Source of the DNA: a virus
Taxonomy: Duplodnaviria; Caudoviricetes
DNA length: 40,391 bases
IMG/VR virus record: IMGVR_UViG_3300030100_001240
Coordinates: 1 to 40,391 of that record
Direction: 5' to 3' (one strand)
Shown here piece by piece: positions 1 to 40,391 of this stretch. How positions within the stretch are numbered: the stretch's first letter is position 1; each line of letters begins with the position of its first letter. The position numbers and the translations under genes were made by a program. Below the pieces are notes generated by a model. It saw only the letters and a list, made by a program, of their open reading frames with translations, ran no database searches and was not told the origin of the DNA.

Positions 1-96
1 ATCTTCAATTGCTGCGCTCATAAATCACTCCGTAGTTAGTTGCCGTATAACAACAACAGGCAGCGCGACACTGCGTGCGCCTGCTGTAAGGGTTAT
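1..96 (+). repeat. Exact copy of 39970-40065 (end of cassette C plus its attC)
   Basis: Identical through ...TAAGGGTTAT, then diverges (AACTCC vs GTGCGC). Confidence 0.95.
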
Positions 97-98
97 AA
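45..98 (+). other. attC-like site of cassette C (second copy, joined to cassette E)
   Basis: GTATAAC-AACAA-CAG[G]CAGC...CCTGCTG-TAAGG-GTTATAA. Confidence 0.85.
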
Positions 99-101
99 CT
101 C

Positions 102-344
102 CTATCGGGCGCAAACAAACTTGTCGCCAGCTTTAAGTATTTTCACAGGCTGGTTCATATCCCGCCGCTCGGTGTATTGGTCGTGCAGATTGTTCAGGTC
201 TAATATCACCTTCACGTTCTGCTTTTTGAGCGTGTCATAGTGATGCCCGCATACAAAAAAGCTCTCACGATCTTTGGATGTTGCGGTGTCGCCTTCGCGC
301 ATATCTGACAGCTTTTCGTACTTTTCAATAAATTCTACATTCAC
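102..344 (-). CDS. Cassette E hypothetical protein (80 aa)
   Basis: 3' part of ORF 102..485; GTG start at 344 preceded by AAGGAG; lies inside cassette 93-405. Confidence 0.7.
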   Translation of the reverse strand: MNVEFIEKYEKLSDMREGDTATSKDRESFFVCGHHYDTLKKQNVKVILDLNNLHDQYTERRDMNQPVKILKAGDKFVCAR

Positions 345-363
345 AGCTTGTCTCCTTAATGCG

Positions 364-411
364 TTATAACAATCACAGGCACGGGACAGGCCCGTGCTGT
401 GGGGGTTAGGC
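364..411 (+). other. attC-like site of cassette E (48 bp, very short)
   Basis: TTATAAC-AATCA-CAG[G]CACG-GGACAGGCC-CGTGCTG-TGGGG-GTTAGGC. Confidence 0.85.
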
Positions 412-735
412 GTGATTTCTACCGGTTTCGCAGTGGTGGCATTGCTTTTCGCCGCCCCTGAATTTGTATCGTTGGTGTATGCCAAGCCAGCGGCACAGTT
501 TGGGATTAATGTGCACGTAGGCGAAGTTGGTCACGGCGGTATGCCACTTCTTGCTGCGGTTAAAGGTGATGGATTTGGAGTACTGCATCCAACCGCGAGG
601 GCGCACTGTAATTTCATAGCGCAACGGGTTTAGCCACCACTTCAACGGCACGCATCGTCTTGGTATGTCCGCATCGCCAATCATGTAGATCAGGATGGCG
701 CGGGTATTCAAAACCATCTGTTCTGGGCAATTCAT
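406..735 (-). CDS. Cassette F hypothetical protein with C-terminal CxxC
   Basis: ORF 406..801; likely ATG at 735 after GAGAGG; stop TAA overlaps the GTTA core at 405. Confidence 0.65.
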   Translation of the reverse strand: MNCPEQMVLNTRAILIYMIGDADIPRRCVPLKWWLNPLRYEITVRPRGWMQYSKSITFNRSKKWHTAVTNFAYVHINPKLCRWLGIHQRYKFRGGEKQCHHCETGRNHA

Positions 736-756
736 ATTTTCAACCTCTCTAAAAAC

Positions 757-827
757 GCCTAGCAACGGTAGGCTGTCGGACTTCGTTACGCTGCGCTTCA
801 CTGCGCAGTTGCTATTGGGGGTTAGTT
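757..827 (+). other. Degenerate attC-like site of cassette F
   Basis: R'' is GCCTAGC (AAC changed to AGC) and L' pairs poorly; 5' ~45 nt nearly identical to the attC at 39585. Confidence 0.7.
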
Positions 828-998
828 GCCTTCCTTAATTTTTGCTTTGAGTTTCGCGTTCTCAATACGTAGCCGCTTGTTCTCTGCTTCCAGCTCGCGC
901 TTTTGCTGTCGGCGCTCGTAACGGCTGCCCCATACTTCAGTCGCAGCCGTGGAACTTTCATTGCATTGCCGGTTTATCGGCATCGGCGGGTATCTCAT
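822..998 (-). CDS. Cassette G small coiled-coil protein (58 aa, MRYPPMPINRQC...KIKEGN)
   Basis: Translated by hand (below the ORF-track cutoff); GAGGA RBS; stop overlaps the GTTA core at 821. Confidence 0.7.
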   Translation of the reverse strand: MRYPPMPINRQCNESSTAATEVWGSRYERRQQKRELEAENKRLRIENAKLKAKIKEGN

Positions 999-1033
999 AT
1001 TGTAAATCCTCTATTCACGTTCAAGTTTTTGGC

Positions 1034-1101
1034 AACTAACAACACGCTATTGCCGGACTGCCTACGCTTCGCTTCGGCAGCCGCAAAGCTGGGGGTTAGC
1101 A
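1034..1101 (+). other. attC-like site of cassette G
   Basis: AACTAAC-AACAC-GCT[A]TTGC...GCAAAGC-TGGGG-GTTAGCA. Confidence 0.85.
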
Positions 1102-1353
1102 GGCCAACTGTGCCCGGCAAATTTCAAGCTGGCGCCCTATCGAAAGGCCAGTCTTTTCTTTGTGCGCAACGAGCTGATCAGCAAGTATTTGTGGTGTCAG
1201 GTCGCACGCCTCCATGGTCAGTTTCATAAATTCCTTTTTGTCTTTCTCATCCATCCATGACTCGAACATCGGCTCAAAGATCAGTTTCGCAATCTCATCA
1301 GGCCGCGTTAACAACTCGGTCAAATCGGACTCACTACGCTTCGCTTCGTTCAC
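1096..1353 (-). CDS. Cassette H hypothetical protein (start codon lies inside its attC)
   Basis: GGAGG-6 nt-GTG inside attC 1306-1373; stop overlaps the core at 1095. Confidence 0.7.
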   Translation of the reverse strand: MNEAKRSESDLTELLTRPDEIAKLIFEPMFESWMDEKDKKEFMKLTMEACDLTPQILADQLVAHKEKTGLSIGRQLEICRAQLAC

Positions 1354-1373
1354 CGTTCACCTCCGGGTTATGG
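1306..1373 (+). other. attC-like site of cassette H
   Basis: CGTTAAC-AACTC-GGT[C]AAAT...GTTCACC-TCCGG-GTTATGG. Confidence 0.8.
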
Positions 1374-1649
1374 GGCTTGCAGTATCCGGCCAAGCCGCAA
1401 TATGTGTACCGCTTCGCCTTCAGGCGCGCCCCATTCAGTTATTCCAGGTCCACCCAGGTGCTCGCCCAGTTCGATCAGCATAGTTGGCGAGGTCGGGCTG
1501 TAGCCGTTGCGAAATTGGATCGCGTCAAACTTTTTATTGTTCAGCCGGCGATTCCAATACGGCTTCATCTCGCGGTATTCCTCTTTCTTCTCGCCGCTGG
1601 CTATCATGTCAAACCAGCGCTTTTTCAATGTAAGGTGTAGCACTTTCAT
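1368..1649 (-). CDS. ASCH/PUA-like domain protein
   Basis: LHLTLKKRWFDMIASGEKKEEYRE...FRNGY motif. Confidence 0.8.
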   Translation of the reverse strand: MKVLHLTLKKRWFDMIASGEKKEEYREMKPYWNRRLNNKKFDAIQFRNGYSPTSPTMLIELGEHLGGPGITEWGAPEGEAVHILRLGRILQAP

Positions 1650-1658
1650 ATTTCGACC

Positions 1659-1979
1659 CTACGCTGTTGGATGCGGCGCAATCACGCTCAGGTCGATCTG
1701 AGCGCCGTTGCCAATATTAAAATTCCAGGCCACGCGCCCGTGAGGCTTCTGCTCTGCTTCGCTGAGTTCGGCGCCCGGAAAAACCAGCGTTATATAACTT
1801 TCAAGCCTTTTCAGGAGCTGGTCGAGGCTTGCAGCCTGTTTCGTCCAAGCGACTGCGATGCAATCCATATCTGTTGCTAAGCTGCCGTGCAGTGCGAGTG
1901 CATACCCGCACTCTCTGGCTACCTCGCACATGCCGGGATAGAGCGTCACGTAAGCTGGGGCAATATTTGGTGCTTTCAT
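1659..1979 (-). CDS. Conserved phage protein with nucleotidyltransferase-like motif
   Basis: GYALALHGS...DMDCIAVAW; ATGA overlap with the upstream gene. Confidence 0.5.
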   Translation of the reverse strand: MKAPNIAPAYVTLYPGMCEVARECGYALALHGSLATDMDCIAVAWTKQAASLDQLLKRLESYITLVFPGAELSEAEQKPHGRVAWNFNIGNGAQIDLSVIAPHPTA

Positions 1980-2401
1980 CGCAGCGCTCGCGCCTCTTCC
2001 ATCTGAATCGCTCTGCTTATAGCATCCGCCGCTTCGCTTAAATCCTGAGCCGTATCGCCCTTGCCGCGAATACCTGAGCACAACAGCTTTTTGATGGCAT
2101 GCTGTCTGGCGGGGCAGGTTACGCTGAATGCGTCAAGCACTGCATAAACATCAGCTTTGCCGTCTACAAGGCAGCGCATGGGGCGGAGGTATTTTGAGCC
2201 GCTGGAATTGAACGGTTCGCTGAGGCTCGTGATGCGGCGCGTGTTCCAGTGTTCGAGGCGCGCGCAGGTGTCACAGTCAAGGCATTCGATGCCTGCGTGC
2301 TCGCCGTCATCATCAGAAAACATAATTTCGGAGTGCCTGATGTTGGTGCTGCTGCAAAATGGGCATGGCAACAGAGTTGAGGTTTCAGTTGCATTGTTCA
2401 T
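1976..2401 (-). CDS. Lar-like zinc ribbon fused to DUF3310-like domain
   Basis: LLPCPFC...CLDC at the N-terminus; DVYAVLDAF...QHAIKKLLCSGIRGKGDTAQDL at the C-terminus. Confidence 0.6.
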   Translation of the reverse strand: MNNATETSTLLPCPFCSSTNIRHSEIMFSDDDGEHAGIECLDCDTCARLEHWNTRRITSLSEPFNSSGSKYLRPMRCLVDGKADVYAVLDAFSVTCPARQHAIKKLLCSGIRGKGDTAQDLSEAADAISRAIQMEEARALR

Positions 2402-2658
2402 GGCAATAGGCCCGCCGGTGGCCAGGGCAGGCCACGCCATCGCGTGTGTCCTCGGCTCATGAGCCAGTTGCGGCTCTGCCGGCGAAGCTCGTAGGGAATC
2501 ACTGTTAGTTCAACGCGCACCTGATGCATTGATATTTCCAGAATCTCATCGCTGGTGTTGCGCGCGCTAGCGTAGCCCTTTTCAATTAAGGCTTGCCGGT
2601 AGGCGGCGACGTCGAGGTCTATCACGGCTTTATGCCGTGGTGGCACTGTTACGTTCAA
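2398..2658 (-). CDS. Hypothetical phage protein
   Basis: ATGA-coupled ORF in the leftward operon. Confidence 0.6.
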   Translation of the reverse strand: MNVTVPPRHKAVIDLDVAAYRQALIEKGYASARNTSDEILEISMHQVRVELTVIPYELRRQSRNWLMSRGHTRWRGLPWPPAGLLP

Positions 2659-3254
2659 TGGTGTTCCTCCTGCGCAATTGTTTCGGCGGGTGGTCCCACT
2701 CGCATGGTGGTGTTCTGTCCGGTCGCATTGGCAAACCAGTTGAGGCAGGCGGCACCGCAGGTGATGATGTGGTGGCGGTACTTTTCTGTATCGCCGTAGC
2801 GTTCTGCCTGGGTGGCTTTGGTGGCGAGGTAGCCGATCAGCCAGAGCCAGTTGTCGGGGCTTTTGCCTTCGTCGTGTTCGGTGCCCCAGCGGTAGCGTTG
2901 ATGCCGCGCCTCGTTGCTGATGGCGGTTAAAAAATCCTCTATTTCTGGCGTGTTAATCCGCTCCAGTTGTGAGCGCAGCAAATCAAGTTCGCAGTAGGGG
3001 CAGCCGGTGGCGCCCTTGCCGCCAGACTCAAGATGCTCGTGTGAGCTGCACCACTGGCTGCGTGGCTTGTGCTGTTCGTTTGGTGTACGCGTGTCTTGAG
3101 GCAGGGCATGCCAGCGCTTTTCGGTGAACCACAGGCGGTCGCCGCACGTGTCGCATCGGGCGTGTACGATTGGCTCTGGATACATCTTGGGGTTTAGCTG
3201 AAAGTCGGGTTGGCCTTCGGCATTTTTGCTGGGTATCCAGTAGTGCTTGTGCAT
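2655..3254 (-). CDS. Hypothetical protein: Cys/His motifs plus possible MazG-like helical C-terminal domain
   Basis: CDTC and CPYC; EARHQRYRWGTEHDEGKSPDNWLWLI...HIITCGAACLNW; AGGAG RBS. Confidence 0.55.
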   Translation of the reverse strand: MHKHYWIPSKNAEGQPDFQLNPKMYPEPIVHARCDTCGDRLWFTEKRWHALPQDTRTPNEQHKPRSQWCSSHEHLESGGKGATGCPYCELDLLRSQLERINTPEIEDFLTAISNEARHQRYRWGTEHDEGKSPDNWLWLIGYLATKATQAERYGDTEKYRHHIITCGAACLNWFANATGQNTTMRVGPPAETIAQEEHH

Positions 3255-3284
3255 GTGATTTCTCCTGCTGCGGTGTTTGTTAAT

Positions 3285-4919
3285 TTACGCGGGCACGGGC
3301 TCCTTCTTTTTGGCGGACGCCTTTTTGCGGGGTGCAGCCTTTGTCTTGGTGGCGGATTTTGGTTTCGCCTTCGCCTTCGGTTTGGCTTTAGGTTTGGGCG
3401 CCGGCGGGTACAGCTCGTTCTCTACCTCCTCGCGAGTCGGTCGATTTTTTTCGAGCTTGATGTTGTAGGTTTCCAGGAGTGCATCGATTGGAAAATGGGA
3501 TGCACTCCAGTTTGATAGCCCGAGTGGGTGTCTGTGGAATTCGTCTCCGTCCTCGGGTACTAGGCAGGCTTTTAGCAGTTCGGAAATTTTAATGGCGGGG
3601 TGCTCGCGGGCGGGCTTCTTCAGGTCTACCGTTGTCACGCACAGCAGCTTGAATATCGCGCGTATTTTTTTCTGTGCGACCTGCACTTCTTTGGCGCTGT
3701 ATTCGTCGGGATCATCAACGATATCGAAAATGCCGGACTCTCGAATAGCGAACATTGCCATGATGTGCGTTGGCTCGTTAAGCGGCAGCGCTTTATTGAT
3801 TTCCTGCATGGCCTCTTCTACCCAGGCGCGGTGCCGCTGGCCAAATTCAGAATGAATTTTCATGTCGCGGTCGTAGCTATCCTGCCCGCGTAGTTCGCCG
3901 TTGGTTTTTTCCTTCGGCTCCTGCCTGCGTTTAGCGGCTTCTGCGACGGCCTTGGGCTGCACGAAGTCAACCTCTCGCTCTGCGATCGCGGCTGTGAAAT
4001 GTTTTACAGTCGGCTTCTCGTTGGTTTTAAATGCGGTGTTTGTCGCTTTCTGCACGGCACGGCTGGCGAGTTTGTTCTTTTCCTTGTAGCAGCTTGCCTG
4101 CAGGCACTGCGGCTTTTTTGGCTGGTCGTCGCTGAAGAGGTCCATGCGGTTGGCAGAGTTCTGCGGGCAGCTGCTGCAGGCGGGCTTGCCGGCAAACTCT
4201 GCATCGAGCTTCCAAGGGACTGCGCTCAGATCCTGCAGGCGAGACTCTACGGCGCGGCGGGTTTCGGCAATGGTTTTGGGTGGCGCTTTGGATTCGGTTC
4301 GCTCTCGGCCATTGAGCCAGCTGCACTCGCGGGCAGCCACTATGCCCAGCACTTCCTCCTGGGGCTCGTGCCCTGCCAAGCGGGCAATCAGTTGTGCATG
4401 CTGCAGATGAATGTCGCCATCCATAAAGGCCTGCTTTACGCGATCGGAGAGGCGGGCCATAGCCAGGCGTTTGTCTACCCACGTTTTGCTGCGGCCGATG
4501 CGTTGAGAAATTGCTTCCACCATGTCGAACTCGGTGCCGTTGCCCTGTTCGTCATGCTCGGTGCGGATGGTTTCGGCGAGATCCTCGCAAAAGCGAGCTT
4601 CTTCCAGCGGGTGAAGTTCTTTGCGTTCGAGATTCTCAATGGCCTGCAGGGCGCGAATCTCTTTCGGGGTAAGGCCTTTTACGATGAGCGCCGGGACCTG
4701 GCTGAGTCCTGCCATCAGTGCGTTGGCTTTGCGGCGAAAGCCAAACACCAGTGTGTAGCGGCCGTCGTCTTTCTGATTGACCTTTACGGGCTGCTGCACG
4801 CCGTTGGCCTGAATTGAGGCCTGCAGCTGTTCGTCGGCTGCCTTGTCGGTTACCAGGCGGTGGTTGTCTACGTCTTCGTCGATGAGGGCGATATCGATGT
4901 ATTCAAATTGTTCGGCCAT
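3285..4919 (-). CDS. ParB/RepB/Spo0J family protein with Lys/Ala-rich tail
   Basis: LQASIQANGVQQPV...GFRR...AIENLERKELHPLEEA, HTH, CxxC motifs, PKPKAKPKAKAK tail. Confidence 0.85.
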   Translation of the reverse strand: MAEQFEYIDIALIDEDVDNHRLVTDKAADEQLQASIQANGVQQPVKVNQKDDGRYTLVFGFRRKANALMAGLSQVPALIVKGLTPKEIRALQAIENLERKELHPLEEARFCEDLAETIRTEHDEQGNGTEFDMVEAISQRIGRSKTWVDKRLAMARLSDRVKQAFMDGDIHLQHAQLIARLAGHEPQEEVLGIVAARECSWLNGRERTESKAPPKTIAETRRAVESRLQDLSAVPWKLDAEFAGKPACSSCPQNSANRMDLFSDDQPKKPQCLQASCYKEKNKLASRAVQKATNTAFKTNEKPTVKHFTAAIAEREVDFVQPKAVAEAAKRRQEPKEKTNGELRGQDSYDRDMKIHSEFGQRHRAWVEEAMQEINKALPLNEPTHIMAMFAIRESGIFDIVDDPDEYSAKEVQVAQKKIRAIFKLLCVTTVDLKKPAREHPAIKISELLKACLVPEDGDEFHRHPLGLSNWSASHFPIDALLETYNIKLEKNRPTREEVENELYPPAPKPKAKPKAKAKPKSATKTKAAPRKKASAKKKEPVPA

Positions 4920-4941
4920 AAAATTCTCCGTTGGCGACAGG

Positions 4942-5208
4942 TCAAATGCTGTTGGTAAAAATCACGTCCAGCGCGGACGCAACCACAAAGCCCCAGATGA
5001 ACGGAAAGAGCCATGGCAGTTCCGGTTGCTCGTCAGTGTGCTGGTGGTTCTGGTCGGCGCGGCTCGGTGATATCGGCGCTCGGCACGATGGCGAAACGTG
5101 AATGACGATTCGTTCTTTGGCAGGCCGTGGTTTAAGCGGTAGCGGCGTGACATTGTGGGCGCACGGGCTTTTTACTACGCTGAGCTTGGGGCGGCGCTTG
5201 TTGTTCAT
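4942..5208 (-). CDS. Hypothetical protein with C-terminal TM helix
   Basis: WLFPFIWGFVVASALDVIF; coupled to the upstream gene. Confidence 0.5.
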   Translation of the reverse strand: MNNKRRPKLSVVKSPCAHNVTPLPLKPRPAKERIVIHVSPSCRAPISPSRADQNHQHTDEQPELPWLFPFIWGFVVASALDVIFTNSI

Positions 5209-5420
5209 GACAGGCTCCTCTGGCGCTGCTGGGTGCGGTTCAGCGTGGTGTCGCTAAGGGGCACAAAGCCCCTGCTGAATTCGCTGTCGATCTGTTTGAT
5301 GTGCCCGCCGGTGCGCAGGTACGCTTCAACATCTTTTTCAATCAAAGCTCGGCGCCTGGCTGAGCTGGTCGTTGTCGGCAGTTGGTCTGCATGGTTTGGG
5401 CGTAGCTTGGTCCAGTTCAT
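5205..5420 (-). CDS. SutA-like RNA polymerase-binding domain protein
   Basis: RRALIEKDVEAYLRTGGHIKQI resembles the SutA core motif. Confidence 0.55.
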   Translation of the reverse strand: MNWTKLRPNHADQLPTTTSSARRRALIEKDVEAYLRTGGHIKQIDSEFSRGFVPLSDTTLNRTQQRQRSLS

Positions 5421-5439
5421 GGCGTGCCTCTCTTTGTGG

Positions 5440-5604
5440 TTACCAGTGGTTCAGGCCGGTGCACCAGCCGGTGATGAAACTTTGCATTTGCCTGCTGCTT
5501 TCCTGCAGTTGTGCTGCGCAGGCGGCTTTGGTTCTATGCTCCACGCTGACAACCGCATGCCCGTTTGAGGTTTGCAGCAATACCAGCAGGAGCCAGGTGG
5601 TCAT
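5440..5604 (-). CDS. Small exported protein (54 aa, MTTWLLLVLLQ...two Cys)
   Basis: Translated by hand; GGAG RBS; hydrophobic N-terminus. Confidence 0.5.
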   Translation of the reverse strand: MTTWLLLVLLQTSNGHAVVSVEHRTKAACAAQLQESSRQMQSFITGWCTGLNHW

Positions 5605-5616
5605 GATTGCTCCGTT

Positions 5617-5638
5617 AAAAAAGCCCGGTTACCCGGGC
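5617..5638 (-). terminator. Intrinsic terminator
   Basis: GCCCGG-GTAA-CCGGGC-TTTTTT on the minus strand. Confidence 0.7.
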
Positions 5639-5853
5639 GACCCTGGATGGTTCTGTTGGTAGTGGTCATTGCACAGTGCCGCTGCCTCGGCCGGATCGTC
5701 GGTAACGTCGAGCATCTGCCACGGTGTTGCTCGACCCTTCGCCGGCGCCCACGCCATGTACATCGGTTGACCCAGCACGAGCGACTTGCTCACTCGGTAG
5801 CCCTTGTCGCTCTGGCTGTACCACTTGGTTTTTCTCGTCCATTTCATCTGCAA
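5629..5853 (-). CDS. Hypothetical phage protein
   Basis: MKWTRKTKWY...YRVSK...YMAWAP; ends at the terminator. Confidence 0.55.
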   Translation of the reverse strand: MQMKWTRKTKWYSQSDKGYRVSKSLVLGQPMYMAWAPAKGRATPWQMLDVTDDPAEAAALCNDHYQQNHPGSPG

Positions 5854-6091
5854 TTTCCTGCAGCAACGCCATGCCTGGTTCTGTTACCAGCGTGACGGCG
5901 TAGTAGCGCTGTATGGTGGTGCCCTTCAGGTTGTAGCTGCGCTGCTCTACCCGAAAATATCCCGCATCGATGTAGCGCGTGAGGGCGATGTTTTTGCCCC
6001 CAAGAATTCGGCGCTGGCGCAGCTCTCGGTACAGTTTTTTGCTGCCTATGCCGAGCCGTTGTGCGGCTTCATCAATCCGGATATTGGTCAT
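5666..6091 (-). CDS. Antirepressor KilAC (ANT) domain protein
   Basis: IDEAAQRLGIGSKKLYRELRQRRIL...YIDAGYFRV...TLVTEPGMALL; GGGGAG RBS. Confidence 0.8.
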   Translation of the reverse strand: MTNIRIDEAAQRLGIGSKKLYRELRQRRILGGKNIALTRYIDAGYFRVEQRSYNLKGTTIQRYYAVTLVTEPGMALLQEIADEMDEKNQVVQPERQGLPSEQVARAGSTDVHGVGAGEGSSNTVADARRYRRSGRGSGTVQ

Positions 6092-6102
6092 GGCTCCCCC
6101 TG

Positions 6103-6285
6103 TCAGGTGAGTGTGTGTTCCATGTTGGCCAGTGCGCGCAGCACGGCTTCCCGGTGCCGTATCCACACCGCCCCGCTGTGGTTGGCATGCAACCAGAGCA
6201 TGACTTTGAGCGCGGCCAGGCACTGATACCGGTGGCCGGGTATGCGCTCGGCTCTGTAAATTTGCGAGGGTGTGGTGTGCATCAT
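6103..6285 (-). CDS. Hypothetical protein (MMHTTPSQIYRAER...)
   Basis: Coupled to the Lar gene; 5' end is duplicated at 6899-6938. Confidence 0.5.
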   Translation of the reverse strand: MMHTTPSQIYRAERIPGHRYQCLAALKVMLWLHANHSGAVWIRHREAVLRALANMEHTLT

Positions 6286-6497
6286 CAGACGCATCTCCTT
6301 TCCCATCCCTCTTCGGCTTGCTGGTCGGCATGCTCATGGCCGCTCGGGTATTCATCGGGCGGGTACACAAAAACCGGGCCGCCAGCGCCGCAGGTCGAGC
6401 ATGTTATTCTTACTATGTTGTGCCCATACGGATGGCTGCCGTAAGCAGGGCCAACGTTGTGGCTATTGCAAAAGGGGCAGGGCTTCATGACGAGCAC
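6285..6497 (-). CDS. Lar family restriction-alleviation protein
   Basis: MKPCPFC...RITCSTCGAGGP...AEEGW. Confidence 0.7.
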   Translation of the reverse strand: MLVMKPCPFCNSHNVGPAYGSHPYGHNIVRITCSTCGAGGPVFVYPPDEYPSGHEHADQQAEEGWERRCV

Positions 6498-6876
6498 CTC
6501 TTGGAAAAACGAAATTAATTATCCTCGGCGGGCCTGCTCTAAGTGCGCAAAGACAGCGTGGAAAGTAGGGTTCTACGTTGATGCCGGTGGCCAGCCTAAA
6601 TACCCATTCATATGCGCCGCGTGTGGTCACAGAACTGCGCAATTTGCAAAGCGTAGGGCTGTTGAGCGCTCCGGGCTGGACGTAGACACGGGGCACCCGA
6701 GGCAGCTGCCCCGAGTATGCGAAGTTTGCGGGTGTGCCGGGGCTGAGAGACATCACTGGGCGCCCAGTGCGCTTTTTGGTGTCGAGGCTGAGCGCTGGCC
6801 AACATCCTATTTGTGCCAGAGTTGCCATGCGCGATGGCATACCCTCGTTACGCCGAACATGCGATACGACGACTGA
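6487..6876 (+). CDS. Zinc-binding HNH-like protein, antisense to the operon
   Basis: CSKC, CAAC, CEVCG...ERHHW...LCQSCHARWH. Confidence 0.6.
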   Translation: MTSTSWKNEINYPRRACSKCAKTAWKVGFYVDAGGQPKYPFICAACGHRTAQFAKRRAVERSGLDVDTGHPRQLPRVCEVCGCAGAERHHWAPSALFGVEAERWPTSYLCQSCHARWHTLVTPNMRYDD

Positions 6877-6935
6877 TTCCGTGCGCTGCCGGGTTGTTCG
6901 CTCGGCTCTGTAAATTTGCGAGGGTGTGGTGTGCA

Positions 6936-7238
6936 TCAGGCTGTCTCCAGCTTGAAATCTGGTGGGGCTGTGGCTATCGGTCCGTTTGCTTTCAGTTGCG
7001 CCAGCTGAATTTCGATGGATTGGAGTTTGAAGTCAGCGTCCGGAGCGTCGAGGTAAACGGTCCAGTCCAGCAGGCGGGGTCTTTTTGCGCCGAGGCGGTA
7101 GTCTGAGCCAGCAGGGTGTGCGTAAACGGTGAGCCCATCGATGTGCCCGAGATAGGTGACCATTACATCGGCGATCCGGGCCTGACTGATTTCCATGGCA
7201 GCGGCTGTGATCTTCAGTGCTCGCTCGGTGGGTGTCAT
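6936..7238 (-). CDS. Hypothetical early protein
   Basis: GGAGG RBS; ATGA-coupled. Confidence 0.6.
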   Translation of the reverse strand: MTPTERALKITAAAMEISQARIADVMVTYLGHIDGLTVYAHPAGSDYRLGAKRPRLLDWTVYLDAPDADFKLQSIEIQLAQLKANGPIATAPPDFKLETA

Positions 7239-7393
7239 GCTTTGCCTCCGTCGGGTGCTGTGTCTGTACCGTTCTGGGCGGCAGTCGCCAGCGTGATTTG
7301 CTCTGCGTCGGCACTCATGAGCTTCAGGCCTGCGTCGGCTGCAAAGCGCAAGATGGTGATGACGGGTGTGTTGTCGGGGATTTTTATGAGCAT
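7235..7393 (-). CDS. Hypothetical protein, first gene of the leftward early operon
   Basis: ATG just downstream of the PL-like promoter. Confidence 0.5.
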   Translation of the reverse strand: MLIKIPDNTPVITILRFAADAGLKLMSADAEQITLATAAQNGTDTAPDGGKA

Positions 7394-7424
7394 TTCGCGG
7401 TTCTCGCAGCGCGTCGTTTTGCAA

Positions 7425-7465
7425 ACGCTACACAATACGTGTTCGCATGTCAACACGAAATGTGT
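7425..7465 (-). promoter_or_regulatory. PL-like promoter overlapped by two operators
   Basis: TTGACA-17 nt-TAGCGT on the minus strand; ACAC-N5-GTGT palindromes at 7430-7442 and 7453-7465. Confidence 0.7.
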
Positions 7466-7547
7466 AGTTCGGGTGCGAGCGTATTTCGATTTGCGAATTT
7501 ACAGGGGTTTCGCGGGGAGGTTTTGGTTCAGGGCGGTGCCGGTGCTT

Positions 7548-7772
7548 TTAGCCCCAGCCGCCGCTTTCTTCGGCAGAGCTATGTCGAGTATCAGGTGCTG
7601 GCTTGCCGGTAAGTTGTTCGAGTTGACGGCTGAGTCGGTTTGATTGTTCCAGCATCTGATCCAGTCGCCCCTTTATGCCGAATACAGCAAACGGCAACAG
7701 CGCCCATAAAATTACCAGGGCGAATATGAAAAGCACCGCGATGATGTTCATGCCTTCGATAGCGTTAGTCAT
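7548..7772 (-). CDS. Small membrane protein downstream of cI (lysogeny-expressed, possibly exclusion)
   Basis: Long hydrophobic helix followed by coiled coil; GGGAGA RBS. Confidence 0.55.
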   Translation of the reverse strand: MTNAIEGMNIIAVLFIFALVILWALLPFAVFGIKGRLDQMLEQSNRLSRQLEQLTGKPAPDTRHSSAEESGGWG

Positions 7773-7804
7773 TGTGGTCTCCCGTGATTTTTTGGGTTTT
7801 TATT

Positions 7805-8152
7805 CTAGCTTGCATCCTTCTTGATTTCAGGCTGCGCCCCGTATGCGGGCGGTTGAGACTCAGCAACGCGGTGGAGCGTGTCCTTTCCCCGTGAATCCAT
7901 GCGCACATATTTCCGTGCAAGGGCCTCCAGTGACGGGTCATCGTCCAGGCCACCAAGGTAAGAGGCGGGCTCTTTGAGTATTTTTGAAAGCGCCACGAGA
8001 ATGTCTGGTGGTGGGTATCGGGTGCCTTGTTCGAAGTTCCCCAGGCGAGACGGGGTCAGCCCGGGGACATGGCCGGCCACGGCGACTTGCGTGAGGCCAA
8101 TAGCCTCTCGCGCCGCCTTTATTCTTTTACCCGCCAGTTTCTTGTAATCCAT
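7805..8152 (-). CDS. CI-like XRE-family repressor without an S24 peptidase domain
   Basis: GKRIKAAREAIGLTQ...SRLGNFEQGTRYP HTH; divergent from cro. Confidence 0.85.
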   Translation of the reverse strand: MDYKKLAGKRIKAAREAIGLTQVAVAGHVPGLTPSRLGNFEQGTRYPPPDILVALSKILKEPASYLGGLDDDPSLEALARKYVRMDSRGKDTLHRVAESQPPAYGAQPEIKKDAS

Positions 8153-8167
8153 GGGGCGGAATTTTAG

Positions 8168-8240
8168 ACACGTATCGTGCGGTGACGTACTTACGTTTTG
8201 TGGGCTTGTTGTTGCCTTAACTACACGATATGTGTTATTC
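8168..8240. promoter_or_regulatory. OR-like operators in the cI/cro intergenic region
   Basis: ACACGTATCGTGC (8168-8180) and ACACGATATGTGT (8223-8235) share the PL operator consensus. Confidence 0.6.
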
Positions 8241-8247
8241 ATATTGC

Positions 8248-9810: not shown

Positions 9811-10647
9811 ATGCAGGATGTGATGCAGCAGCTCGCACAGGGTGGCCTTGTGATTGACGGCGCGCTCGAATACGGCCGTCTGGTGCGATGCAAGGTCGAG
9901 GGTGATACAGGCCGTAAGCAAAGCGGCTGGTATGTGTTGCATACCCTTGTGCTCGATAACGGTCAGGATGTTGTGGTTGGCCGCTACGGCAACTGGAAGC
10001 GTTACGGTGGTGAAGGGCAGAAGGTTGAGCTGGATTTGCCTGAGCTTACTGCCGAGCAGAAAAAGGCCTTTGCAGCCGAGCAGAAGCGGCTGAGCGATGC
10101 CGCGCGACGTGAGCGCCTGGCTCGGGCCGAAGAGGCTGCGGAGCGTGCGAAGAAACTATTTCCCAAACTGCCTGACTCGGGAAAATCTCCTTATCTTGAT
10201 AGAAAAAAGGTGCGCGCTTTTGGTGTGCGCTTTTCCCGTGGTTCGATTGTTGTTCCTCTCAGAAATTCGGAATTAAAGCTGGTTGGTCTGCAGTTTATTG
10301 CGCCCGACGGCAGTAAAAAATTTTTGACGGGTACCGCCAAGATGGGTGCTTTTCACATGGTGGGGGTTCCGTCGGAAAAATCACCTTTGTGTATTGCTGA
10401 AGGCTATGCCACGGCGGCGACTGTTCATATGGCATCGGGTTGGGCATGCCTGGTTGCGTTTGATGCGGGCAATCTTAAACCCGTCGCGCTGGCGGCTCGG
10501 AAAATGTATCCAGATATCGAGCTCGTAATCTGCGGCGACGACGATCACGCGACGGATGGTAACCCGGGTGTTACGAAGGCGACAGAGGCTGCCGCTGCTG
10601 TTGGCGGTTGCGTTGTGATTCCCCAGTTCGAGAAGGGGGCGTTGTGA
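9811..10647 (+). CDS. DNA primase, Toprim domain
   Basis: LQFIAPDGSKKFL; IAEGYATAAT; AFDAGNL; ICGDDD. Confidence 0.9.
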   Translation: MQDVMQQLAQGGLVIDGALEYGRLVRCKVEGDTGRKQSGWYVLHTLVLDNGQDVVVGRYGNWKRYGGEGQKVELDLPELTAEQKKAFAAEQKRLSDAARRERLARAEEAAERAKKLFPKLPDSGKSPYLDRKKVRAFGVRFSRGSIVVPLRNSELKLVGLQFIAPDGSKKFLTGTAKMGAFHMVGVPSEKSPLCIAEGYATAATVHMASGWACLVAFDAGNLKPVALAARKMYPDIELVICGDDDHATDGNPGVTKATEAAAAVGGCVVIPQFEKGAL

Positions 10648-11051
10648 CGGCTCGCAAGGCAAAGTGGATGGGCATGAATTGGTGCAGGCCGTCAACGCGG
10701 CTTGCGGTTTATCTGCGCGATGAGGTGGTCTGTTTGTGGTGCCAGAACGATTTTGATTCTGACGATAGAAAGCCAAGCCTCGACCATCTTGTGCCGGTTT
10801 CTCGCGGTGGTAGCAATACCCCGTGCAATTTGTTTACAGCGTGCCTGGGCTGCAATAGGCGGCGGGGTAATTTGAGCATACCGGCCTTTGCTGCATCGTT
10901 TCCGGATCCGCAAGGCGTGGAGAGGCGCATACGCAATGCGGTCAGGCGGCGGCTGCCTCGTGAGCGCGCTATCGAAATTCTTAATGATCACCTAACGATT
11001 ACAGGCGCGCTGTTGGCGTTGATTCGGTCTGCTCGGGAGTGCGAGTTGTAA
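10644..11051 (+). CDS. HNH endonuclease
   Basis: RD..CLWC...SLDHLVPVSRGGSN...NLFTACLGCNRRRG. Confidence 0.9.
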   Translation: MTARKAKWMGMNWCRPSTRLAVYLRDEVVCLWCQNDFDSDDRKPSLDHLVPVSRGGSNTPCNLFTACLGCNRRRGNLSIPAFAASFPDPQGVERRIRNAVRRRLPRERAIEILNDHLTITGALLALIRSARECEL

Positions 11052-12460
11052 TGAGCGATGCTTTGACTGATTTCAACGATCTGCATTGCGCTCACGGGCT
11101 CGATACTGTTCGAGACCAGGTGGAGCGCGCATATCATAATTTTGTTGAGACGCGCAGCGTTGAATCAGCGCCGCCAGAGCCTGAGCAGGAAGAGCTGCCT
11201 TCACCGCCGGACCTTGATTGGCTGCGGCAAATGCAGAAAACGCGGCAGGGCGCGTTCATGGCCAATATTTATAACGCGCATATGGTGTTGTCTCACGATT
11301 CAGACTGGCAGGGTGTGTTGGGGTACTGTGAGTTCAGTTATCGCATTATCAAGCGTCGGGTGCCGCCGTGGTTTGGTGGCGTGGTGGGTGAGTGGACAGA
11401 CGCCGATACGGCTCGTCTGCGAATCTGGATTTCAAAAAAATACGGTTTCTCGCCGAAAAGCGCTGACGCGGAAGACGCGATACTGGTAGCTGCTCAAGAC
11501 AAAAGTTTTCACCCTGTTACTGAATATCTGGATGGCCTCGTGTGGGACAGGCAGCCTCGTGTTCGCTCCTGGCTAAAAACCTACATGGGTGCGGAGTCGT
11601 CGGCGGAAGATGCGGGTGAGCGTGCGCGGTACGAGCGCTATGTGTCTCTGGTGGGCACGATGTGGCTGATTGCTGCAATTGCTCGCGTTGTTCGCCCGCC
11701 GGTGAAGTCGGACTGCGTTTTGATTTTGGAAGGGCTGCAGGGGCTGGGCAAGTCAACCGCGCTCGAGATTCTCGGCGGCAGTTGGTTCTCGGATACGCAC
11801 TTTGCTCTGGGTGAAAAAGACGGCTACCAGCAAATGCAGGGTGTGTGGATCTGTGAGCTGGCAGAACTGGATTCTTTCAACAAGGCTGAGTCGACTCGCG
11901 CGAAGCAATTTTTCGCGAGTTCTGAGGATCGATACCGCCCTGCGTATGGTCGTCGCGCTCATGCCTTTGCGCGGCAGTGTGTGTTCGCCGGTACCACCAA
12001 TCAGGACAGCTACCTGAAAGACCCAACGGGCAACCGGCGCTATTGGCCGGTGTTTTGTTATCGGCTCGACGCGGTAGCGTTGGCTCGCGATCGGGATCAA
12101 TTGTGGGCTGAGGCCTACCAGTTGTATTGCCTGGGTGAAAAGTGGTGGGTGCAGGAGCATGACAAGCATCTGTTTGAAGAGCAGCAGGAGGCGCGGTTCG
12201 CATCCGATGTTTGGGAAGATTTGATTGTGGAGTACCTACGCGATCCGATGAATAACGCAGAGGTTTATTTCACTACCAATGATCTGATGGCTGGGGCGTT
12301 GCGGCTTGAGCCTGCACAAATGCGCCAGCCTGAGCAAACGCGTGTAGGGCAAATCATGACGCGCCTGGGGTGGCGCAAGTCTCGGCGCGCAGTGCTTGAG
12401 AGTAGCGGTAAGCAGGTGAGGAAGTGGGTTTATGAGCGGCCGCCTGACTGGAAGGGCTGA
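11051..12460 (+). CDS. VapE/VirE family P-loop helicase
   Basis: LILEGLQGLGKST; ELAEL; RPAYGR; GTTN; GNRRYWP. Confidence 0.9.
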   Translation: MSDALTDFNDLHCAHGLDTVRDQVERAYHNFVETRSVESAPPEPEQEELPSPPDLDWLRQMQKTRQGAFMANIYNAHMVLSHDSDWQGVLGYCEFSYRIIKRRVPPWFGGVVGEWTDADTARLRIWISKKYGFSPKSADAEDAILVAAQDKSFHPVTEYLDGLVWDRQPRVRSWLKTYMGAESSAEDAGERARYERYVSLVGTMWLIAAIARVVRPPVKSDCVLILEGLQGLGKSTALEILGGSWFSDTHFALGEKDGYQQMQGVWICELAELDSFNKAESTRAKQFFASSEDRYRPAYGRRAHAFARQCVFAGTTNQDSYLKDPTGNRRYWPVFCYRLDAVALARDRDQLWAEAYQLYCLGEKWWVQEHDKHLFEEQQEARFASDVWEDLIVEYLRDPMNNAEVYFTTNDLMAGALRLEPAQMRQPEQTRVGQIMTRLGWRKSRRAVLESSGKQVRKWVYERPPDWKG

Positions 12461-12462
12461 AA

Positions 12463-12729
12463 TGTCCAACCTGTCCAACCTGCCGCGTGGAGGTTGGACG
12501 CGCTGAAAGCCGCGTCATTACTGGGCGTGTCCAACCTGTCCAACCTGTCCAACCTTTTGCGCGCACGTGTATGTGTTTTTACATGCGCGCTGTAAGGCCG
12601 AAACGAAAACGATTAATCGTCTTGTGTGTACGAATAAGGTTGGACAGGTTGGACAGGTTGGACAAAGCCAGTAGCTATAAGGGTTTCAGAGTGTCCAACC
12701 TCGCCAAAGGTTGGACAGAGGTTGGACAT
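12463..12729. repeat. Iteron-like TGTCCAACC / GGTTGGACA repeat cluster (putative replication origin)
   Basis: About a dozen direct and inverted copies, including tandem triplets at ~12528 and ~12638, right after the helicase. Confidence 0.75.
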
Positions 12730-37239: not shown

Positions 37240-37510
37240 GTGCCTGCAAAATGCCTCCAGTATTTTTATCTCAGCTTTAGTTTATTGATTTAAAAGCGCT
37301 TTATTTTTTGTTTGTACAATCCATCATGGGCGCAACACAGAATCGCCTGTCCAGTCCCTTTCCCACATAACCCGCGCCGTCCGTGGGTTTCCCGCCATTT
37401 TCAGCGTCTTGCAGCATCATTTTGCCTGTTTATTAAATAACCTATTTCGCCCCATAATCTACCATTTCTACCCGTTTTTGCTATTGTAGTGCCTCCAGAA
37501 TGCCCCCAAA
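37240..37510. other. attP region; core around 37320-37336 matches the dusA 5' end
   Basis: Minus strand GTTGCGCCCATGATGGA encodes VAPMMD; arm-type TGCCTCCAG-like repeats at 37240-37260 and 37489-37509. Confidence 0.8.
37301..37420 (-). pseudogene. dusA: Replacement 5' fragment of dusA (39 aa, ...RRFCVAPMMDCT)
   Basis: Translated by hand: MMLQDAENGGKPTDGAGYVGKGLDRRFCVAPMMDCTNKK*. Confidence 0.75.
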
Positions 37511-37528: not shown

Positions 37529-38587
37529 GTGGCGACGATAACAGCAAGAAAGCGCAAATCCGGCACCCAATATACGGCCCGAATCAGGGTGAAGCGGGAC
37601 GGCCAAATTGTACACCAGGAGTCGGAGACTTTCGCGCGAAAGGCTCTGGCGAAGGCCTGGGCAGACAAGCGGGAAGGGGAGCTGAGAGTGCCTGGTGCGC
37701 TTGAGCGATTAACCCGCGTAGGTGTATCGGTGGGGCAGGTGCTCCAGTGGTATCTCGATGATTATGATGGGGTCAACAAGTTTGGCCGATCAAAGAACAC
37801 CTCGTTGAATCAGCTGATTAATGATCCTGAATTGGCTGGGCTGGATGCGATGTCGCTGACTTCGGGGCAGATGGTTGCGCATGCCAGGCGGCGCCTAGGT
37901 AATGGGGCGGGCCCTGCGACGGTGAATAATGATTTCATCTGGTTGCGCACGGCCATGCGCGCAGTGCGTATTGGTCGCGATCTTCCTCTGGATTTGCAAG
38001 CCATTGATGACGCCGCTTTTATATGTCGCAAAGAGCGATTGATTGCGAAGTCTTCTCAGCGCGATCGTCGCCCGACGCTCTCGGAGGTCGATAAACATCT
38101 CAAGCACTTTTCTGAGCGCGACGGGCGGGCGCAGACTCCGATGGTTGATATTATACAGTTCGCGCTGTTCAGTAGCCGGCGGCAGGAGGAAATTTGCCGT
38201 ATCCGCTGGGCGGATGTGGATCGTGATAAACAGCGGGTTTTAGTGAGGGATATGAAGCACCCGAAACAGTTGGTTGATACCTGGGTGTTTGTACCCGACC
38301 TTGCCTGGCAGGTTTTGCTGAGGCAGCCAGAGAGTGAAGATGGGCGAGTGTTTCCGTACAACAGCAAAACGGTATCTTCTAATTTTACCCGTGCATGCAA
38401 ACTACTGGGGATAAAGGATCTTCGGTTTCACGATTTGCGGCATGAGTGCATAAGCTGGCTGTTTGAGCAAGGCTGGGATATTCCTCGCGTGGCCTCGGTG
38501 ACTGGGCACAAGGCGTGGACTTCGCTGCAGCGGTATACGCACCTGGAGCAGGTGGGGGATAAATACGCGGATTTCACGCTGCGCTAG
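37529..38587 (+). CDS. int: Tyrosine integrase (dusA-associated type)
   Basis: SRRQEEI (R), DMKHP (K), FHDLRHE, TGHK, LQRYTH; GGAGA RBS before GTG. Confidence 0.9.
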   Translation: MATITARKRKSGTQYTARIRVKRDGQIVHQESETFARKALAKAWADKREGELRVPGALERLTRVGVSVGQVLQWYLDDYDGVNKFGRSKNTSLNQLINDPELAGLDAMSLTSGQMVAHARRRLGNGAGPATVNNDFIWLRTAMRAVRIGRDLPLDLQAIDDAAFICRKERLIAKSSQRDRRPTLSEVDKHLKHFSERDGRAQTPMVDIIQFALFSSRRQEEICRIRWADVDRDKQRVLVRDMKHPKQLVDTWVFVPDLAWQVLLRQPESEDGRVFPYNSKTVSSNFTRACKLLGIKDLRFHDLRHECISWLFEQGWDIPRVASVTGHKAWTSLQRYTHLEQVGDKYADFTLR

Positions 38588-38837
38588 ATTTCAGGCGTTT
38601 GTGATCGTGGCGGGCCTGTTCTTTGAGCTGGTCCAGCCATTCTGCCAAATCGTGGGCGTTGATAAGCCATTCGGATTTCTGCGAGCCGCCGCGAAAGCAG
38701 GGCACCGGCAAGTCCTGGTGTCGGGCCTTTGATGCGGCCTTTGCATAGCTGAGCCCAAAGTATTTATCGCAGCATGCCATCAGCGGTATGTCTGCGGTTT
38801 CGTACTCCAGCATCAGTGCCATAAATGTTGACTTCAT
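38574..38837 (-). CDS. PrtN-like protein, probable excisionase
   Basis: STFMALMLEYETADIPL...LPVPCFRGGSQKS..DLAEWLD; convergent with int. Confidence 0.8.
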   Translation of the reverse strand: MKSTFMALMLEYETADIPLMACCDKYFGLSYAKAASKARHQDLPVPCFRGGSQKSEWLINAHDLAEWLDQLKEQARHDHKRLKSSAA

Positions 38838-38860
38838 CGGTCACTCCTGCGTGATAGTGG

Positions 38861-38913
38861 GACAAAGTGGGGTGATATAACGCGACACTTTGTCGTCTAT
38901 TTGGGTGTTATAT
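38861..38913 (+). other. Left boundary of the cassette array (candidate primary insertion site)
   Basis: G|TTATAT core at 38907 with no attC L-box arms; 9-bp inverted repeat GACAAAGTG/CACTTTGTC. Confidence 0.55.
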
Positions 38914-38914
38914 T

Positions 38915-39139
38915 TCAATTCTTCATCGCGTAGTGTTCTGCCCAAATCTCGTCGCACTTGCGTACAGCGTCATAGAAGTGTGTTGGGCCGGTAAACTCAA
39001 CGAACACTTCGTTTTCCTTGGCCAGTGTCGATTTTGTGGCAGTGGTTAGAATCATCATTTCCCTGTCATCATTCATGTATGATTCCTCGCCGCGAATAGT
39101 TGGTCCCTTTCGCCAGCCGTGCATAAATTCAATGCCCAT
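38915..39139 (-). CDS. Cassette A hypothetical protein
   Basis: ORF fills cassette 38908-39216. Confidence 0.7.
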   Translation of the reverse strand: MGIEFMHGWRKGPTIRGEESYMNDDREMMILTTATKSTLAKENEVFVEFTGPTHFYDAVRKCDEIWAEHYAMKN

Positions 39140-39158
39140 CCAGTCTCTCGCTATTTAA

Positions 39159-39222
39159 ATATAACAACTGCCGTCACAGCGACGGCTCATTGCATTCGCC
39201 GCGCGTGCGGCTTGGGTTAGGC
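39159..39222 (+). other. attC-like site of cassette A
   Basis: ATATAAC-AACTG-CCG[T]CACA...CGTGCGG-CTTGG-GTTAGGC. Confidence 0.85.
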
Positions 39223-39564
39223 GTACTCAAACACCTGAGTACTTGGGTTGTCCTCGCCATCGTCATCAGGCAGCAGCGCCACCACTTTCCCAATTTCATT
39301 CAATAGCTGGGCAACGCCGCTTGGATTCCATTCTGTTGCTCGTGCTACGGCACCTCTCCATATGTCGGCGCCACAACCTTGTGACATCATTGATCTGTAA
39401 TATGAGGTGGTTTCGGCTTCCTCTTTTGCCGCCTCTAGATATTCCCCGGTATTGCAACACGGGCACGGCCATGAGTGGTCGTCTGGATCATATCCGTCAC
39501 TATCGGCGTCCCAAACATACCCATCGCCTCTGCATTCAAATGTTCCGTTCTGGTATTCGCACAT
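39217..39564 (-). CDS. Cassette B Cys-rich hypothetical protein
   Basis: C..DGYVWDADSD...PCPCCNT; GAGGA RBS; stop overlaps the core. Confidence 0.75.
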   Translation of the reverse strand: MCEYQNGTFECRGDGYVWDADSDGYDPDDHSWPCPCCNTGEYLEAAKEEAETTSYYRSMMSQGCGADIWRGAVARATEWNPSGVAQLLNEIGKVVALLPDDDGEDNPSTQVFEYA

Positions 39565-39584
39565 TCTTCAATTCCTCAAATCAC

Positions 39585-39654
39585 GCCTAACAACTGTAGG
39601 CTGTCGGACTTCGTTACGCTGCGCTTCACTCAGCCGCAGCTACTTGGGTTATAC
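39585..39654 (+). other. attC-like site of cassette B
   Basis: GCCTAAC-AACTG-TAG[G]CTGT...GCAGCTA-CTTGG-GTTATAC. Confidence 0.85.
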
Positions 39655-39990
39655 GGCCTTCCTATCCAGGCGCTCTATCTCGGCGATTAGTAGCGCAGCG
39701 GCCCGCACCAGGTCGCGCCTTGGGTCTTTTGGTTTCCACCATCTTTCATCCCACGGCCAATCCTGAGGGACTTCTTCCTCCTGGTATCTAGCCAGTGATC
39801 CGCCTAATTTTTTTCGCAATTCACTGTCAGCGTCCAGCAACCATGATCGGCATACATAATGAGAGACGTAGTTTCCGGCCGCCTGTGCCATTTCTCGGTT
39901 TTTATGCTCGTCGTCGTGTTCTGCTGTCCATCCCTCTGATGCTATTTGCCGCTGCCGTTCCTCTAATACATCTTCAATTGCTGCGCTCAT
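39649..39990 (-). CDS. Cassette C conserved phage early-region protein
   Basis: ERQRQIASEGWTAEHDD...WPW..WWKP..RRDLVRAAALLIAEIERLDR, a widespread phage domain. Confidence 0.8.
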   Translation of the reverse strand: MSAAIEDVLEERQRQIASEGWTAEHDDEHKNREMAQAAGNYVSHYVCRSWLLDADSELRKKLGGSLARYQEEEVPQDWPWDERWWKPKDPRRDLVRAAALLIAEIERLDRKAV

Positions 39991-40013
39991 AAATCACTCC
40001 GTAGTTAGTTGCC

Positions 40014-40067
40014 GTATAACAACAACAGGCAGCGCGACACTGCGTGCGCCTGCTGTAAGGGTTATGT
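40014..40067 (+). other. attC-like site of cassette C (joined to cassette D)
   Basis: Same site as 45-98 but R' is GTTATGT. Confidence 0.85.
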
Positions 40068-40232
40068 GCGCTCCCGCATAGCTTCGTCAACTTCAAGCTC
40101 ATCAAGCGCAGCCTGCAATTTGTTCTTCAGCTCTCGCGCAGCGTTTTTTGTAAAATGTTGTTTAATGCCGGAGAACTCCACAATAAATGGGAACACTCCA
40201 GCAGGGTCTACCAGCGTAACTTTGATGCTCAT
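40062..40232 (-). CDS. Cassette D small hypothetical protein (56 aa)
   Basis: GGAG RBS before ATG at 40232; stop overlaps the core. Confidence 0.7.
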   Translation of the reverse strand: MSIKVTLVDPAGVFPFIVEFSGIKQHFTKNAARELKNKLQAALDELEVDEAMRERT

Positions 40233-40250
40233 ATCACACTCCGTATCGGC

Positions 40251-40307
40251 ACATAACAAAGCCAGCAAGCGCGACGGCTGCGCCGCGCCTTCTGGCGGGG
40301 GTTAGGC
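40251..40307 (+). other. attC-like site of cassette D
   Basis: ACATAAC-AAAGC-CAG[C]AAGC...CCTTCTG-GCGGG-GTTAGGC. Confidence 0.85.
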
Positions 40308-40391
40308 GTACTCAAACACCTGAGTACTTGGGTTGTCCTCGCCATCGTCATCAGGCAGCAGCGCCACCACTTTCCCAATTTCATTCAATAG
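40299..40391 (+). repeat. Exact copy of 39214-39306 (start of cassette B)
   Basis: Identity begins at GGG|TTAGGC, the attC crossover. Confidence 0.95.

Follow-up and report, generated by a model that had tools for sequence, protein, structure and literature searches.

Clusters of attC sites lacking integron integrases (CALINs) have already been described in phages. Qi et al. 2023 (PMC9892861) reported 17 of them among 10,705 phages, and the integrase IntI1 recombined in E. coli five of the six phage attC sites assayed (here and below, statements on cited work refer to the available portions of each paper). We analysed a stretch of 40,391 nucleotides (the window), which is the whole IMG/VR virus record IMGVR_UViG_3300030100_001240 of a marine temperate phage (Caudoviricetes). 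It carries an array of attC-bearing gene cassettes, A to H, as proposed in an initial annotation made from the sequence; the array is located between the excisionase gene (xis) and the left early genes. Like the CALINs of Qi et al., this is a phage attC cluster without the integron integrase gene intI. It differs from them in polarity: the cassettes of phage TJE1 are sense (two of two with our scanner), an arrangement called typical in that paper, whereas the window genes are antisense. Moreover, the available portions of that paper place attI solely in captured host-type integrons (Shewanella M16-3, P1), whereas the attI-type site of the window is phage-resident, and the window genes are phage-like, lie in an early operon behind this site and are common to different phages.

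Three further systems are close. Sedentary chromosomal integrons of the host order and family (G413, G031, G408 and the Gilvimarinus locus L149) are alike in attC geometry, loop motifs, a homologous attI and crossover at G|TT. In comparison with them, the window has no intI, no promoter found upstream of attI on the + strand, reversed polarity, GG instead of GC before GTT and no shared genes found. Secondary insertion at attG sites (Loot et al., 10.1101/2022.09.11.507474) likewise relies on IntI working in trans, away from its own platform, but attG is a three-base consensus and the window has about 55 bp homologous to real attI. Finally, prophages with dusA-associated integrases integrate at the 5' end of dusA and carry a replacement 5' end (Farrugia et al. 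2015, PMC4482086), as this phage does; the likeness describes only the carrier. Among 80 viral loci whose integrases are related, 79 showed no array. Phage-borne attC clusters are published. No paper on reversed phage cassettes with a phage attI was found in a search that covered subscription journals poorly, and the figures and annotation of Qi et al. may hold antisense cases.

The attC array and the attI-type site

The attC array is real. A strict attC pattern (TAAC, 5 nt, 8-nt L'' with an extra base at position 4, 7-nt L', 5 nt, GTTA) matched six times in the window, always on the + strand, with 0.04 matches expected per 40 kb (50 Markov controls). A covariance model was built from 79 bacterial chromosomal attC sites, chosen by our own scanner and hence of the same geometry. 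Run with filters off at E ≤ 1, it matched eight places (A, B, C twice, D, E, G and H; 23–39 bits), all on the + strand and none elsewhere in the window. Seven of the eight distinct sites thus showed the R''-L''(extra base)-L'-R' palindrome, and the initial expectation of a CALIN with seven or eight model matches was borne out. The site of cassette F was not matched by the model in the window at E ≤ 1; it has CTAGC as R'' and an L box that pairs at five of seven positions. The R' spacers of attC-D and attC-F are 6 nt long, and attC-H barely folds (z 0.14). The attC architecture first assigned to all eight sites therefore stood for seven, with F degenerate and D and F deviating in the spacer, while all eight unit boundaries were recovered at the positions originally drawn. 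No match was obtained with Rfam. Three earlier versions of our scanner did not detect D, F or H; thresholds were then relaxed with the window in view, so that counts from the relaxed scanner are not blind. With at least two attC sites close together and no intI, the locus is a CALIN.

By its sequence, a host-type attI adjoins xis in this phage. Against 35 putative attI sites, the best scores were 61 for the window and 58 for the corresponding site of a second phage (L085), compared with background maxima of 40 and 43 (5180 GTT-anchored 66-mers). Ungapped, the window site agreed at 33 of 42 positions with G411 and at 32 of 42 with G413, and the L085 site at 31 of 42 with G031; the attI sites of G413 and G031 lie directly upstream of intI. 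Between xis and cassette A, the intervening 70 bases also aligned with the same place in L085 (score 52; shuffles 10.5 ± 6.5, with none of 2000 as high), a phage whose integrase differs. Homology to IntI-adjacent attI sites thus points to a putative attI heading the array, which strengthens the initial idea that the attC cassettes serve as a plug-in platform for accessory genes. An inverted middle segment of the site (37/41 to the other strand of G413) was considered and dropped as unneeded, given the forward match of 32/42 to a near-symmetric site. A supposed host attI at a loose end in sequencing run X1 turned out to be L085. Chromosomal attI sites of the same type, with no intI alongside, were also noticed in L338 (G415) and L389 (G411).

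Gene polarity and cassette exchange

The extra base lies on the left arm of the + strand, which makes this strand the attC top strand as defined by Nivina et al. (PMC5027507). All eight cassette genes lie on the − strand, antisense to the attC top strand and in line with the left early operon; all have motifs resembling a ribosome-binding site (RBS), and six stop on the core TAA. This orientation had gone unmentioned in the initial annotation, whose placing of an accessory platform in the early operon was itself supported. Consequently, a cassette promoter (Pc) upstream of attI with sense genes was not what we found; no + strand promoter matched in 38400–40391, and promoter and terminator scans gave results at chance level.

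Host-order integrons (60 regions upstream of intI, same scanner) had 125 of 125 sites pointing away from intI and, among 71 cassettes, 55 sense, 5 antisense and 11 unclear. In host-family integrons (20 regions), 79 of 89 cassettes were sense, 2 antisense and 8 unclear, genome G112 being included in both sets. Captured fragments were sense as well: 8 of 13 cassettes in a Vibrio phage (1 antisense) and 12 of 15 in a Shewanella prophage (0 antisense). The same attC loop motif occurred in 92 bacterial genome stretches, of which the array-bearing ones were sense except prophage L105. Antisense arrays were also found in phage DNA (L003, L004, L025, L178, L186), in prophage L105 and in fragments of G426. 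Among 80 viral loci with a cassette C homologue, five carried sites (L002, which is the same phage, L003, L004, L009 and L025); the covariance model was run on 55 of the 80, with L002 and near-duplicate loci left out.

Some details of these relatives were recorded in passing. In the Oceanospirillaceae prophage L105 (2780–6260), antisense cassettes flank int-xis on either side and thereby place it between attC-like sites, and one cassette gene is DNA methyltransferase-like. L003 has an additional gene on the integrase strand between integrase and array (4990–5350). The idea that reversed polarity favours folding on the lagging strand during replication found no support: cumulative GC skew rises on the + strand almost throughout, which would put the bottom strand, if anything, on the leading template. 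This skew drops solely across the array and its flank (39049–40391 and 1–2084), and the GC content of the array is 51%, compared with 57% in the remaining window.

Cassettes are exchanged at G|TT, each attC travelling with the unit on its left. L002, another assembly of the window phage, lacks cassette B exactly at G|TT, and the resulting A-to-C joint is also present, with a short side, in runs X3 and X4. Across the contigs, which show the presence of orders and not rates, cassette A comes after attI-1, attI-2 or another attC and before B, C or a third unit; next to B stands C or either of two other units, and next to C stands D or E, neighbours always diverging within 0–2 bases of G|TTA. Loose ends in X3 and X4 have another attC before A and another unit after B; in X5, a separate study with a small share, A and B each run into other units and B is preceded by another site. 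The second phage, L085, runs into cassette A in X1 and X2, and a contig of X4 (sample S3) ends at L085:1408. This phage has a different integrase and a different Xis-like gene, a homologous attI and the same cassette A start. Altogether, A is joined to two different attI and to an unrelated attC over joints that share just 2–4 letters. The initial prediction that related DNA should change content at G|TT thus agreed with L002, the run contigs and L085. Phages of one host appear to draw on a common cassette pool, sharing being shown for A. Single-protein scans for relatives returned no locus with the integrase and one with Xis, from the same phage; L083 proved a chance match inside an unrelated gene.

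None of the eight cassette proteins matched 87 host integron loci (441 kb), and for the arrays sampled the phage pool is kept apart from the host's own. The cassette proteins had no PHROG name, no Pfam match above cut-off and no PADLOC match better than E 0.003, and their Atlas clusters are unnamed. Cassette B also has a + strand open reading frame of equal length; the recorded protein is the − strand one, which has a family. Different genes were seen with nearly the same head of RBS plus R'' and differing attC behind (C with L343, D with L339; window 39994–40025 and 40233–40260, L339:673, L343:44, L003), a shared head that may preserve a trace of cassette formation. One small cassette is present in both of two G426 fragments (L343:65–620 and L339:437–1008), and L343 has sites on both strands, as if part of the array were inverted.

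The carrier phage, its likely host and the assembled array

The record holds genes for integrase, excisionase, repressor, primase, terminase, portal, capsid and tape measure (Table 1). From its attachment site the integrase is assigned to the dusA type, and from its profile score it is not an IntI: a six-frame search of the record found no intI in cis above the TIGR02249 cut-off, the sole tyrosine recombinase lying far below it. The phage attaches in the 5' end of dusA and brings a replacement sequence, whose peptide motif RRFCVAPMM we take to be that of DusA. The left early region would be read as one transcript. Outside the array, a primase-helicase was noted in two pieces (9811–10647 and 11039–12460) that match successive stretches of a single PHROG profile, a 147-aa open reading frame (10608–11051) lying between them, as were exact direct repeats of 40 bases (6245–6284 and 6899–6938) and 20 bases (12463–12482 and 12528–12547).

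Table 1. Positions of the array, the attI-type site and selected phage features in the window
Feature	Positions	Strand	Remarks
attI-type insertion site	38850..38914	+	crossover G38907|T38908; homologous to chromosomal attI and to the L085 site beside xis
Cassette A	38908..39216	+	gene 38915-39076 (-), longer start 39139 possible; attC 39159-39222; same start in L085
Cassette B	39217..39648	+	gene 39217-39564 (-), Cys-rich; attC 39585-39654
Cassette C	39649..40061	+	gene 39649-39990 (-), domain of unknown function widespread in phages; attC 40014-40067 (repeated 45-98)
Cassette D	40062..40301	+	gene 40062-40232 (-); attC 40251-40307; probably from a rarer array
Cassette E	93..405	+	gene 102-344 (-); attC 364-411
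Cassette F	406..821	+	gene 406-735 (-); degenerate attC 757-827
Cassette G	822..1095	+	gene 822-998 (-); attC 1034-1101
Cassette H	1096..1367	+	gene 1096-1353 (-); attC 1306-1373 holds the gene's RBS-like motif and GTG start
Second copy of cassette B start (contig end)	40302..40391	+	end repeat
Weak ASCH-like gene, distal array end	1368..1649	-	stop codon formed by the core that follows attC-H; lacks an attC; E 0.031, under cut-off
Left early region	1368..8242	-	helix-turn-helix repressor (7805-8242) to array, left early genes 1368-7772; 13 further genes, mostly abutting, gaps -4 to 245 nt
Excisionase (xis), last gene of left operon	38574..38837	-	phrog_1300, E 1.8e-22
Tyrosine integrase, dusA-associated type, not IntI	37529..38587	+	PHROG integrase; TIGR02249 30.7 bits vs cut-off 265; 352-aa form P0012
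attP region	37305..37350		departure points of run contigs at 37320 and 37350; 23/23 match of 37305-37327 to a G408 contig end that continues into native dusA
Replacement 5' end of dusA	37322..37420	-	translated peptide ends RRFCVAPMM

The likely host genome is G408, from the 40-genome family of G112. One of its contigs ends in native dusA joined to 23 letters of the window phage, another begins with the att core of the second phage, and it holds a loose end of X3 letter for letter; no phage body was found in G408, only the att junctions. This genome also has an intact IntI of 441.7 bits, together with a LexA-box-like motif and an attI. An IntI above cut-off was present in 28 of the 40 family genomes and in 107 of 201 genomes of the order; the family of G031 consists of one genome. 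The attP-core pattern gave no match in 401 genomes of the order. The integrase of the second phage is on record from a Spongiibacteraceae metagenome-assembled genome (MAG).

The units of the eight-cassette array that was initially drawn across the window ends are all present, but these ends are repeats: 1–96 repeats 39970–40065 (end of C), and 40299–40391 repeats 39214–39306 (start of B). Because of this duplication, and because the depth of cassette D in X1 is low (34.5 compared with about 142 for the phage body, roughly a quarter), eight cassettes in one row probably reflect an assembly path through repeats. The depth of D is near that of the phage in X3 and X4 (8.5 and 11.7 versus about 9.4). 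The dominant form would probably be the seven cassettes A-B-C-E-F-G-H, the order obtained by closing 1–39969, with D derived from a rarer array. A member of the Xis cluster lies on a 40,024-base contig, a length equal to 39,969 + 55 that is a hint only. Junctions within 39622–40024 in X1, X3 and X4 were also seen to chain into a loop of an unassigned unit, A, C, D, B and an unassigned unit.

Movement of the cassettes and its meaning

The array is likely an integron platform without integrase on a temperate phage, whose cassettes a host chromosomal IntI would move and whose genes would be read from the left early promoter. In such a scheme, the host integrase would cut cassettes out and insert them in trans, each attC moving with the unit on its left by virtue of its normal geometry, and exchange falling at G|TT. 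In every unit the attC precedes the gene, whose end mostly coincides with the core TAA, so that the reading frame survives any move. New cassettes would enter at attI, adjoining xis and farthest from the promoter, and the backward-facing genes would be served by the left early promoter of the phage. Host cassettes are often anti-phage (10.1101/2024.07.02.601686), and the reversed polarity might silence such cassettes in the phage, as well as phage genes in a host integron. A bolder version, which we put forward tentatively and at somewhat less than an even chance, sees a parasitic mirror of the host integron: a copy of the host attI at the distal end of the left operon, host IntI acting in trans, and a phage-only cassette pool traded among co-resident prophages, with polarity and the GG signature insulating it from the anti-phage cassettes of the host.

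Several observations weigh against the integron-platform interpretation. GG closes the R' spacer of every one of the eight window sites and of 16 of the 23 phage sites, but of no bacterial site (0/82, 0/125 and 0/107, overlapping sets). The bottom strand is the more stable one in just five of the eight window sites, by 0.2–1.5 kcal/mol, and the phage sites as a group show no bottom-strand folding bias (11/23 compared with 67/82 bacterial sites), in a comparison confounded by site length (median 64 versus 106). At the attI-type site, a core-only weight matrix ranks it 26th of 1224 GTT in the window, the equivalent site of L003 falls short of significance (13 background scores reach its level), and the window attI is nearer to those of relatives than to that of G408 itself (22/42, score 21); attI is usually read by its cognate integrase alone (PMC2095811). 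Prophage L105 has such an array, yet its MAG shows solely an internally deleted intI. A coupling of the phage to the SOS response was not supported: a LexA box is missing from the phage, and a peptidase domain from its repressor. As for the exchanges, one side of the A-to-C joint in the runs is just 21 letters long; L002 may combine the two phages as a chimera, although its junction is real in either case; and X1 to X4 belong to one study, possibly the source of the window.

The GG signature could mean another enzyme, and some of these points would suit real and mobile cassettes moved by another recombinase, such as a phage integrase, the XerCD of the host or an IntI carried by some other mobile element. 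It would account for the spacer and fit the loss of folding bias, an attI unlike that of G408, the L105 host without a whole intI and the ability of XerC/D to act on single strands (PMC5027507). We nevertheless regard it as unlikely, because cassette A is common to two phages with unrelated integrases, just one of 80 viral loci of this integrase family has an array (own scanner) and the platform is homologous to IntI-adjacent attI.

Degenerate sites F and H, together with the ability of IntI to insert at many GWT sites (10.1101/2022.09.11.507474), would agree with a largely frozen relic, left by a host IntI at an attG-like secondary site or by capture of an integron fragment. This is improbable in view of the sense orientation of captured fragments, the lack of matches between the eight proteins and the host integron loci, and the identical cassettes with several neighbours in present-day DNA. 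The least probable origin of the order changes is homologous recombination, slippage between similar hairpins or assembly errors without any site-specific enzyme: attC-B and attC-F have 35 bp in common, attC-A and attC-B end in nine identical letters, the window ends are repeats and slippage deletes small cassettes without integrase (PMC5371416), but the joints of A share too few letters, attC sites remain whole with the left unit and unlike sequences cannot be joined at G|TT by an assembler.

With the integron platform served by a host IntI as the preferred interpretation, the covariance matches and the changes at G|TT uphold the signature of IntI-mobilised cassettes first read from this array, though in a phage without its own IntI. 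The parts are present: a putative phage attI, attC sites, two phages with a common cassette and a candidate host IntI. They would offer a site-specific and testable way in which early regions of phages become mosaic gene by gene. A pool with its own polarity and site signature, and with shared RBS-plus-R'' heads, also bears on how cassettes are made. If this interpretation is true, the integron, which is known for storing anti-phage genes (10.1101/2024.07.02.601686), becomes a tool of phages too.
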